A program made the translations under genes and the position numbers. DNA of 63,164 nt, counting the filler, from Stramenopiles sp. TOSAG23-2 (Eukaryota): assembly GCA_900128395.1 (NCBI GenBank). It is 15 parts of 15 records of this genome, joined end to end, with 100 filler letters (N's around TTAATTAATTAA, not from the genome) between each part and the next. Parts side by side here need not be neighbours in the genome. Positions count along the whole stretch, not along the records: positions 29,609 to 33,719 come from LT650985.1; 14 more parts are not named here. One strand, given 5' to 3'. This document shows positions 32,010 through 33,374 of the stretch, one piece after another. Under the pieces are notes generated by a model. It had not been told where the DNA came from, ran no database searches, and saw only the letters and a program-made list of their open reading frames with translations. Numbering within the stretch: position 1 is the stretch's first letter; each line of letters starts with the position of its first letter.

Positions 32010-33374
32010 ATGCGTGAATGTATCTTAATCCACTTAGGTCAAGCTGGTTGTCAATTAGGTAATGCTTGTTGGGAATTGTTCTGTTTAGAACACGGTATCC
32101 AGCCTAATGGTCAAAAGCCATCAACCGGAGGTGACGATAACTACAGTGATGACGATAGTTATGGTACCTTCTTCACCGAAACTGGCGCAGGTAAATTTGT
32201 ACCACGTTGTGTATTCCTTGATTTAGAGCCAACTGTAATTGATGAAGTACGTTCAGGTACATACAGATCCTTGTTCCATCCAGAACAGTTGATTTCAGGT
32301 AAAGAAGATGCAGCAAATAACTATGCTCGTGGACATTACACCGTAGGTAAAGAAGTTGTTGATCTAGTTTTAGACAGATTGCGTAAAGGCGCTGACCAAT
32401 GTACCGGTTTACAAGGATTCATGGTTTTCCATGCATTCGGTGGGGGCACAGGTGGTGGTTTCGCTTCCTTGTTATTGGAACGTTTAAGTGTTGATTACGG
32501 ACGTAAAGCAAAAATTTTGTTTAGTGTATACCCATCGCCACAATGTTCCACTGCTGTTGTTGAGCCATACAATGCAGTATTAACATCCCACAGTATGCTT
32601 GAGCATTCCGATGTTGCTTTCATGGTTGATAATGAAGCACTATACGATATCTGCCGTCGTGCATTGGATATCGAGCGTCCAACATACACTAACTTGAATC
32701 GTTTGGTTTCTCAAATTATTTCAAGTATCACAGCTTCTTTACGTTTCGACGGTCAAATTAATGTTGATATGACGGCTTTCCAAACTAACTTGGTACCATA
32801 CCCACGTATCAGTTTCCCATTATGTTCATATGCTCCAATTATCGCTGCAGAGAAAGCATATCACGAACAATTATCGGTAAGCGAAATCACAAGTGCCGTG
32901 TTCGAACCATCCACCATGATGGTTAAATGCGACCCACGTCATGGCAAATACATGGCATGTGTTTTGATGTACCGTGGTGATGTAGTACCAAAAGATGTTA
33001 ACAGTTCCATTGCTGCTGTAAAATCCAAGCGTACCATTCAATTCGTTGATTGGTGCCCAACAGCATTCAAAGTTTCCATCAATAACCAGCCTCCAACTGT
33101 CGTTCCAGGTGGTGATTTAGCAAAAGTACAACGTGCACTTTTGATGATTTCCAATACAACTGCGATTGGTGAAATTTCTGGACGTCTTGACCATAAATTC
33201 GATTTGATGTATTCCAAACGTGCATTTGTACATTGGTACGTCGGTGAAGGTATGGAAGAAGGTGAATTCTCCGAAGCTCGTGAAGATTTAGCAGCTTTGG
33301 AAAAAGATTACCATGAAGTTGCCGTAGAAACCGCTGAAGGTGAAGGTGAAGATGAAGATATGGAAGAATATTAA
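32010..33374 (+). CDS. TUBA: Alpha-tubulin, divergent paralogue (E254A-equivalent, GGGTGGG, no K40)
   Basis: MREC start, [46 protein letters not shown] and C-terminal EEY. Intact, intronless 454-aa ORF. Confidence 0.97.

Follow-up and report, generated by a model that had tools for sequence, protein, structure and literature searches.

The alpha-tubulin gene and its catalytic position

We analysed a divergent alpha-tubulin gene at positions 32010-33374 (plus strand, as for every gene feature given below) of a 63,164-nucleotide stretch of DNA from Stramenopiles sp. TOSAG23-2. This whole stretch is referred to as the window. It is AT-rich (GC fraction 0.24-0.37 per 2 kb), and its genes are ordinary eukaryotic ones with long intronless open reading frames (ORFs) containing runs of Asn and Lys. 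The tubulin gene is also intronless and extends from ATG to TAA over 454 amino acids plus the stop, as assigned from the ORF, its translation, and the matches to Pfam and the PDB. Its product contains PF00091 (Tubulin, residues 3-215, E = 3.8e-59) and PF03953 (Tubulin_C, residues 265-393, E = 8.8e-46). An acidic C-terminal tail with a terminal Tyr is read from the translation at 33336-33371, and the last residues before the TAA stop are MEEY. A first-pass annotation of this DNA had described the frame as full length with an EEY end, and both statements hold.

Against solved structures, phmmer matched 168 distinct PDB sequences at E values up to 1e-50. All 60 of these matches that were listed are named alpha-tubulin, with E values from 2.9e-256 to 7.4e-244 and alignments spanning residues 1-453. 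The top match is 7sj9_A (E = 2.9e-256), which reads TAFQTNL at the catalytic stretch. According to the data statement of PMC8764682, 7SJ9 is the guanosine triphosphate (GTP)-E254A-EB3 microtubule.

Ala254: The stretch around the catalytic position covers residues 251-261 (32760-32792), for which wild-type alpha-1A reads NVDLTEFQTNL at the aligned place in phmmer. The codon GCT at 32775-32777 encodes Ala256, which takes the place of the canonical Glu254 in the translation and in the structure alignment. Residue 256 equals canonical 254 because the window protein carries two additional residues in the loop after residue 38. In canonical numbering, which is used from here on, Asn249 and Asp251 are retained and Glu254 is lost, leaving Asp251 as the remaining member of the catalytic pair. 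The protein is best read as an alpha-tubulin by descent that is devoid of the catalytic Glu254 hallmark. The replacement, its codon, and its numbering agree with the first-pass annotation, as does the remark that GCT lies two bases away from both GAA and GAG. A non-standard meaning of GCT was also considered and was rejected, since GCT also specifies Ala in the conserved GQAG motif close to the gene start.

When column 254 was scored in an alignment of alpha-tubulin families, Glu was found in 68 of 68 canonical sequences. Among 396 collected proteins, the catalytic motif occurred 332 times, with Glu in 285 instances, Ala in 37, and Ser in 10. On these counts, the replacement goes beyond chance. 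Every protein of this collection without Glu254 is an unnamed environmental sequence, and no named protein lacking Glu254 was found among those examined, for which the best 120 matches of each of three large protein searches were taken in. A carboxylate is likewise absent at this position in two metagenome loci, L001 and L002, which carry Ala as the window does.

Conservation and phylogeny of the replaced residue

The identical protein is recorded from 36 contigs in NCBI, JGI, ENA, and EukProt sources, and at least two metagenome loci (L001 and L002) carry the window gene. L001 differs from the window by 18 synonymous and no non-synonymous changes and shares the GCT codon. L002 has a DNA identity of 88% to the window, with three residues different, a synonymous divergence (dS) of 0.81, a non-synonymous divergence (dN) of 0.012, and a dN/dS of 0.014. 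In L002 the Ala codon is GCG. Among the variant places listed from four sequencing runs, 36 of 40 lie at third codon positions. The low dN/dS, together with the synonymous change of the Ala codon itself, argues that Ala254 is kept under strong purifying selection; neutral evolution, which the first-pass annotation had named as a possible refutation, is not borne out, and related sequences with the same change, for which it had proposed to look, exist. Errors of sequencing or assembly and pseudogene decay were thus rejected as the source of Ala254; nothing was found in their favour, and their probability is negligible: the independent copies have GCT and GCG at the codon, the identical protein stands on 36 contigs, dN/dS is 0.014, and the ORF is intact with a strong codon bias.

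Decay can also be judged from the conserved columns of the family. We defined 263 columns with at least 95% conservation among 68 canonical alpha-tubulins, using a reference set cleaned of the divergent type. The window protein departs at 14 of them, its Glu-bearing sisters at 12-16, and the Hondaea protein at 6. Since the window protein departs no more than its sisters, it shows no greater decay than its relatives do. Of the 263, column 254 alone separates the Ala/Ser-bearing clade described below from the Glu-bearing sisters, and no acidic residue is gained in any column specific to that clade.

At 90% identity, the window protein falls into a cluster of 174 members. The 15 listed members have Ala (8, the window included), Ser (5), or Glu (1), and one is a fragment from which the region is absent. 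The Glu member, P0125, is a 260-residue fragment of a Glu-bearing sister type. A second cluster, 88% identical to the window protein, has 111 members and shows Ala in 15 of 15 listed, four of which also have Gln253. Over both clusters, Ala or Ser occurs in 28 of 30 listed members. Instead of an orthologue, the second cluster may represent an additional paralogue carried by the same genomes: its identity to the window protein is only 88%, whereas the window type stays 99% identical at a dS of 0.81. In addition, 'g….t1' labels of one EukProt source are found on P0137 of the second cluster and on P0305 and P0336, proteins at least 90% identical to two neighbours of the tubulin gene in the window, and the chimeric environmental contigs P0148 and P0144 join the two Ala254 types in fixed pairs.

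Seven of the collected environmental proteins (P0097, P0113, P0129, P0140, P0143, P0144, and P0148) look chimeric: each combines either two Ala254 types or one Ala254 type with a canonical one. In P0148, a second-cluster N-terminus is joined to the remainder of the window type. Such proteins are probably assembly artefacts of co-occurring transcripts, with gene conversion as the alternative.

For the phylogeny, we selected 73 full-length rows by hand, excluding fragments, long fused gene models, and the seven apparent chimeras, and built a maximum-likelihood tree without column 254. The window protein lies in a 15-row Ala/Ser clade (support 89/78), which is nested in a clade of 24 rows (100/99), the remaining nine of which retain Glu. 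The 24-row clade belongs to a 47-row group (100/97), together with Hondaea and a cluster holding a Cafeteria protein, both of which are Bigyra. A canonical alpha-tubulin labelled MAST-4, which is described in the next section, stands far off, among plant-like and alga-like alpha-tubulins.

The minimum number of state changes at position 254 on this tree is three. One loss of Glu lies in the Ala/Ser clade of the window. Another is a four-row Ala group sister to the Cafeteria-type cluster (100/99), with Ala in six of six members that contain the motif. The third is a Ser group formed by L003, L004, and L019 (100/98), which use the codons TCT, TCC, and TCA. A tree constrained to unite all 22 non-Glu rows in a single clade is worse by 221 log-likelihood units and is rejected by the approximately unbiased test (p = 5e-10). 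Judged from these sequences, Glu254 was lost at least three separate times within a divergent alpha-tubulin type, to Ala or Ser. In the window lineage, the change appears to be from Glu254 to Ala, with Ser in a sibling lineage.

Named relatives are P0115 of Hondaea fermentalgiana and P0260 of Cafeteria roenbergensis. Both are of the same divergent type and share PLCS after the 254 helix and Ala at canonical position 277, and P0260 also has TAFKVGINNQPP. Unlike the window protein, both retain Glu254.

The metagenome scan returned mostly distant canonical alpha-tubulins, and locus counts taken from it are lower bounds. Eight environmental alpha-tubulin loci (L021, L039, L052, L060, and L073-L076) contain no catalytic-stretch motif under the standard code. 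L073 yielded no readable tubulin piece, and in-frame stops break up the ORF in each of the other seven. In L074, one piece ends in NVDVTEF and the next starts with TNLVPY, with a stop in place of the expected Gln. This suggests that such loci come from organisms which read a stop codon as Gln, as ciliates do.

Apart from position 254, the window protein is remodelled at several sites.

Residue-40 loop: The phmmer alignment places two added residues in this loop (32121-32165), and there is no lysine at the place of canonical Lys40, an acetylation site.

S147G: The Gly-rich nucleotide-binding motif reads GGGTGGG (32439-32459), the usual alpha-tubulin pattern being GGGTG[SA]G. In the conserved-column alignment, all 68 canonical sequences have Ser at position 147, and the sister groups have either Ala or Ser there. 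Gly is found only in the sub-clade of the window, in seven of seven rows.

G350A, G354S, and Y357N: These changes lie in the segment equivalent to canonical 349-360 (33060-33095), as seen in the alignments. G350A is common to all 24 rows of the clade, G354S is limited to the window sub-clade, and Y357N is visible in the structure alignment and in the sequences of the relatives. G350A and Y357N predate the loss of Glu254 in the clade, being common to the Glu-bearing sisters. Positions 350 and 354 matter in canonical tubulin, because the disease variants listed for TUBA4A include Gly350Val and Gly354Asp (PMC12262762). The changes at these two positions may belong to the same remodelling of the contact as the loss of Glu254. 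Further departures are His266Ser and Glu433His.

Canonical paralogue, transcription, and genomic setting

No second tubulin was found within the 63-kb window. The first-pass annotation had proposed a search for a canonical alpha-tubulin elsewhere, and locus L054 provides one. Its protein is fully canonical, with an SDKT loop containing Lys40, GGGTGSG, NVDITEFQTNL, and an EEY tail, and it is 77% identical to the window protein. We compared composition-corrected tetranucleotide z-scores of the L054 flanks, from which the tubulin gene had been removed, with those of the window. The correlation is 0.765, compared with 0.63-0.77 for 9-kb pieces of the window itself, 0.79 for L001, and -0.02 to 0.41 for 11 other loci. 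Synonymous codon usage of the two tubulin genes correlates with r = 0.91, the other ORFs of L054 are of the same style (long, intronless, with Asn, Thr, and Lys runs), and the contig names of L054 and L001 have a common assembly prefix. A protein two residues off that of L054, P0234, is present on 86 contigs, and one source names it 'Stramenopile-MAST_4_protein_790'. Together, these features suggest that L054 comes from the organism of the window or from a sibling. The organism probably belongs to MAST-4, marine stramenopiles that have not been cultured; this label rests on P0234, the variant of the canonical tubulin, and not on the window gene. Cluster searches with ten proteins encoded near the tubulin gene in the window matched five of them, none with a taxon name.

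Because of the flank composition, codon usage, ORF style, assembly prefix, and MAST-4 label, the organism very probably has both an Ala254 and a canonical E254 alpha-tubulin gene, which matches the paralogue status proposed in the first-pass annotation. The alternative is that the Ala254 gene is the only alpha-tubulin of its organism and that the canonical gene of L054 stems from another one. It would fit the single tubulin in the window, the fact that the two genes were never seen on one contig in the loci examined, and the blastn comparison of L054 with the window, which found no shared repeat apart from the tubulin gene. Set against it, the L054 flanks fit the window signature as well as the window's own pieces do, and the codon usage, the gene style, and the common prefix of the L054 and L001 contig names all speak for one genome. 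We regard a sole Ala254 alpha-tubulin as very unlikely.

Transcription was assessed from public sequencing runs. Among the 24 runs listed, 20 (from 15 studies) contain 78-92% of the sampled words of the stretch, and 15 of these 20 are RNA on record, polyA-selected and oligo-dT libraries included. Four runs were aligned to the gene as assembled contigs, not reads, and contig depth cannot rank genes. Three RNA libraries contain contigs that match the window exactly and that cover, in pieces, the coding region and also both untranslated flanks (31930-32365 and 33333-33500 in X4; 31930-32075 in X13). The codon at 32775-32777, for which the first-pass annotation had wanted read support, is spanned by a contig of a DNA run, the sole bridging contig among the pieces listed.

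Over six NNY codon pairs, the fraction ending in C is 0.49 in the tubulin gene versus 0.08-0.21 in 11 neighbouring ORFs. The richness in TTC, AAC, and TAC noted in the first-pass annotation is accurate for TTC (18, with 3 TTT) and TAC (13, with 6 TAT), while AAC (6, with 9 AAT) is enriched but not in the majority. The bias resembles that which translational selection gives to highly expressed genes. With the stretch in 15 RNA libraries and this codon bias, the gene is probably transcribed.

A probable 5' untranslated region extends over 31930-32009, based on the starts of RNA-library contigs and on the alignment with L001 and L002. RNA contigs of two studies (X4 record 25 and X13 record 9) both start at 31930, and a DNA-run contig reaches 31900; this is a weak hint that 31930 is the transcript start. 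The bases before the ATG, at about 31955-32009, are conserved among the window, L001, and L002 despite the coding dS of 0.81 for L002. The leader of the canonical genes (L054 and L046) is partly alike, a common CCATAA included, which could be due to chance in AT-rich sequence.

Alignment with L001 delimits a 2.7-kb cassette in the window (31022-33702, plus strand), consisting of the tubulin gene flanked by about 1 kb on the upstream side and 0.33 kb on the downstream side. In L001 it lies at 5551-8453 and is 87-97% identical. Because this cassette is common to both while the flanks beyond it are unrelated, the Ala254 gene is present in two genomic contexts through segmental duplication or transposition. 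At the left end of the cassette, a remnant of an ankyrin-repeat gene (31024-31281, plus strand) comprises its last 85 codons and the stop, and stops just upstream close the frame. The same gene is whole in L001, as an ORF of 960 amino acids. A dispersed repeat of about 250 bases, 89% identical, occurs at 6435-6686 of the window (minus strand) and at 5971-6227 of L001, just upstream of the L001 cassette.

Proposed function of the Ala254 isotype

Published work describes the role of Glu254 in canonical tubulins. The incoming alpha subunit contributes D251 and E254 to the active site of beta-tubulin (PMC12186500). Recombinant human E254A tubulin shows no GTP hydrolysis, nucleates strongly, and forms stable microtubules, and human E254D hydrolyses GTP about four times more slowly (PMC7018511). 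Lattices of E254A and E254N are expanded and undergo no catastrophes (PMC8764682), and E254Q and E254N are hydrolysis-deficient (PMC11893814). The statement of the first-pass annotation that E254 activates hydrolysis on the adjacent beta subunit and that E254A locks the GTP state is in line with three of these papers (PMC12186500, PMC7018511, and PMC8764682).

By homology with the human and yeast mutants, we propose the following mechanism. The Ala254 subunit would still make heterodimers and join microtubule lattices. Docked on the beta-tubulin of the dimer below, it would supply no carboxylate to activate GTP hydrolysis by that beta subunit, and each such contact is predicted to keep its GTP state, which would give a locally or globally stabilised GTP-like lattice. 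Lattices rich in the Ala254 isotype should be expanded, easily nucleated, and catastrophe-resistant. The gene would thus offer a genetically encoded route to building or seeding stable microtubules, with the canonical isotype supplying the dynamic ones. A division of labour between the two isotypes appears to be the most economical reading. Going by general cell biology, the stable arrays of a small flagellate could be its axoneme, basal bodies, or roots. Within the tubulin dimer, a comparable situation is found in all eukaryotes: beta-tubulin has Lys at the position equivalent to 254, and the GTP at the intradimer site is not hydrolysed. The contact is likewise non-acidic there, while the change in the window protein would affect the contact between dimers. 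Some separation, dosage control, or partner specificity would have to exist for the Ala254 isotype to be tolerated, because the same change is lethal in yeast and dominantly pathogenic in TUBA4A. Given their cluster sizes, such isotypes may even be the major alpha-tubulin of these cells.

The closest known counterpart is the engineered human TUBA1B E254A (7SJ9; PMC7018511, PMC8764682), which has Ala in the same TAFQTNL context and is the top-scoring solved chain. It was made in the laboratory by a single change in a protein that is canonical elsewhere, whereas the window protein is natural, about 80% identical, has 13 more departures at conserved columns, and is kept by selection. The same residue is replaced, by Ala among others, in the yeast catalytic-Glu mutant and in human TUBA4A variants (PMC7018511, PMC12262762). 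There the change is lethal or causes severe dominant disease; in the window protein it is fixed and conserved in a widespread organism. Among protists, Naegleria likewise has functionally separate canonical and divergent tubulin paralogues, and its divergent mitotic alpha- and beta-tubulins build the spindle (PMC9036621). The passages of that paper report no loss of a catalytic residue, and the terms 'E254' and 'catalytic' are absent from its text.

Hydrolysis could instead be retained or slowed if Asp251, Ser254 (in the sibling lineage), G350A/G354S/Y357N, or the partner beta-tubulin compensated, so that the isotype would be slow-hydrolysing and not dead. Asn249 and Asp251 are indeed retained, G350A and Y357N arose before the loss of Glu254 and are shared with the Glu-bearing sisters, and human E254D, at about a quarter of the normal rate, indicates that the site tolerates some change (PMC7018511). 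However, human E254A, E254N, and E254Q are all reported as hydrolysis-deficient (PMC7018511, PMC8764682, PMC11893814), the columns specific to the Ala/Ser clade show no acidic gain, and column 254 is the only one of 263 that separates this clade from its sisters. We consider such compensation unlikely, yet it is the most serious competitor of a non-hydrolysing contact.

The protein might also act mainly outside ordinary lattices, as a nucleation seed or template or as a holder of beta-tubulin, and not as a bulk subunit. Strong nucleation by E254A tubulin would suit this role (PMC7018511). The window protein, however, retains 249 of the 263 conserved alpha-tubulin columns and an acidic tail with a terminal Tyr, and its gene has the codon bias of an abundant protein, all of which fits a bulk lattice subunit. 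A predominantly non-lattice function is improbable.

On balance, we favour with moderate confidence that the gene is a functional, probably transcribed Ala254 paralogue of an AT-rich marine stramenopile (probably MAST-4), very probably present beside a canonical alpha-tubulin and making non-hydrolysing contacts that would stabilise the lattice. Several points weigh against this. The two genes are assigned to one genome by composition, a common assembly prefix, and a source label, and they were not seen together on a contig. The RNA-library contigs listed end at 32771-32773 and resume at 32780-32792, and none of them bridges the Ala codon; these contigs are the pieces listed, and 4403 further pieces exist. 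The expressed state claimed in the first-pass annotation is thus backed by the RNA libraries and the codon bias but not at the codon itself. DNA carry-over may contribute to the RNA-library signal. The alternation of Ala and Ser could reflect an unconstrained position rather than selection. The predicted loss of hydrolysis is extrapolated from mutant tubulins of human and yeast, and the role in stable arrays is conjectural. Finally, a change of Glu254 is lethal in yeast even beside wild-type alpha-tubulin (as cited in PMC7018511), and heterozygous TUBA4A Glu254Ala, Gly, Lys, or Gln leads to severe early myopathy (PMC12262762).

Extended to all three losses, the proposal is that GTPase-dead isotypes arose independently in widespread marine heterotrophic stramenopiles: in a MAST-4-like lineage, in a lineage related to Cafeteria, and in one further lineage, where they would build or seed permanently GTP-state microtubules beside a canonical alpha-tubulin. 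We put this forward tentatively, at slightly less than even chances.

Glu254 has been described as an evolutionarily conserved catalytic residue underlying dynamic instability. The openly available full texts searched contained no natural loss of Glu254 but only engineered or disease variants. For MAST-4 together with tubulin, they yielded only a general remark that tubulin is highly expressed. The alpha-tubulin isotype described here is naturally without the catalytic Glu254 and is conserved, widespread, and recurrent. If the proposed function is true, cells can live with a hydrolysis-dead tubulin isotype and apparently select for one, and the engineered E254A mutant has a natural equivalent in the window gene, which the cell tolerates alongside a canonical alpha-tubulin. 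It would then provide a natural system for the in vivo use of GTP-state lattices, be it in stable axonemes or roots, at rescue sites, or as nucleation seeds. The natural variants (Ala, Ser, and Gln253 with Ala254) are ready-made for GTP-cap biochemistry.

Two minor observations concern the rest of the window. It contains 29 runs of N; 28 of these, each of 44 bases, come in pairs spaced about 4.2 kb apart between 4148 and 59063, and the other (36669-36776) has 108 bases. None touches the tubulin gene, the nearest being at 33720-33763, and the regular spacing looks like masking rather than assembly gaps. At 21487-24045 (plus strand), an ORF of 852 amino acids fuses PF02746 and PF13378 (mandelate racemase/enolase-type) to PF02826 (D-2-hydroxyacid dehydrogenase NAD-binding), with an Asn-rich insert within the enolase-type C-terminal domain.

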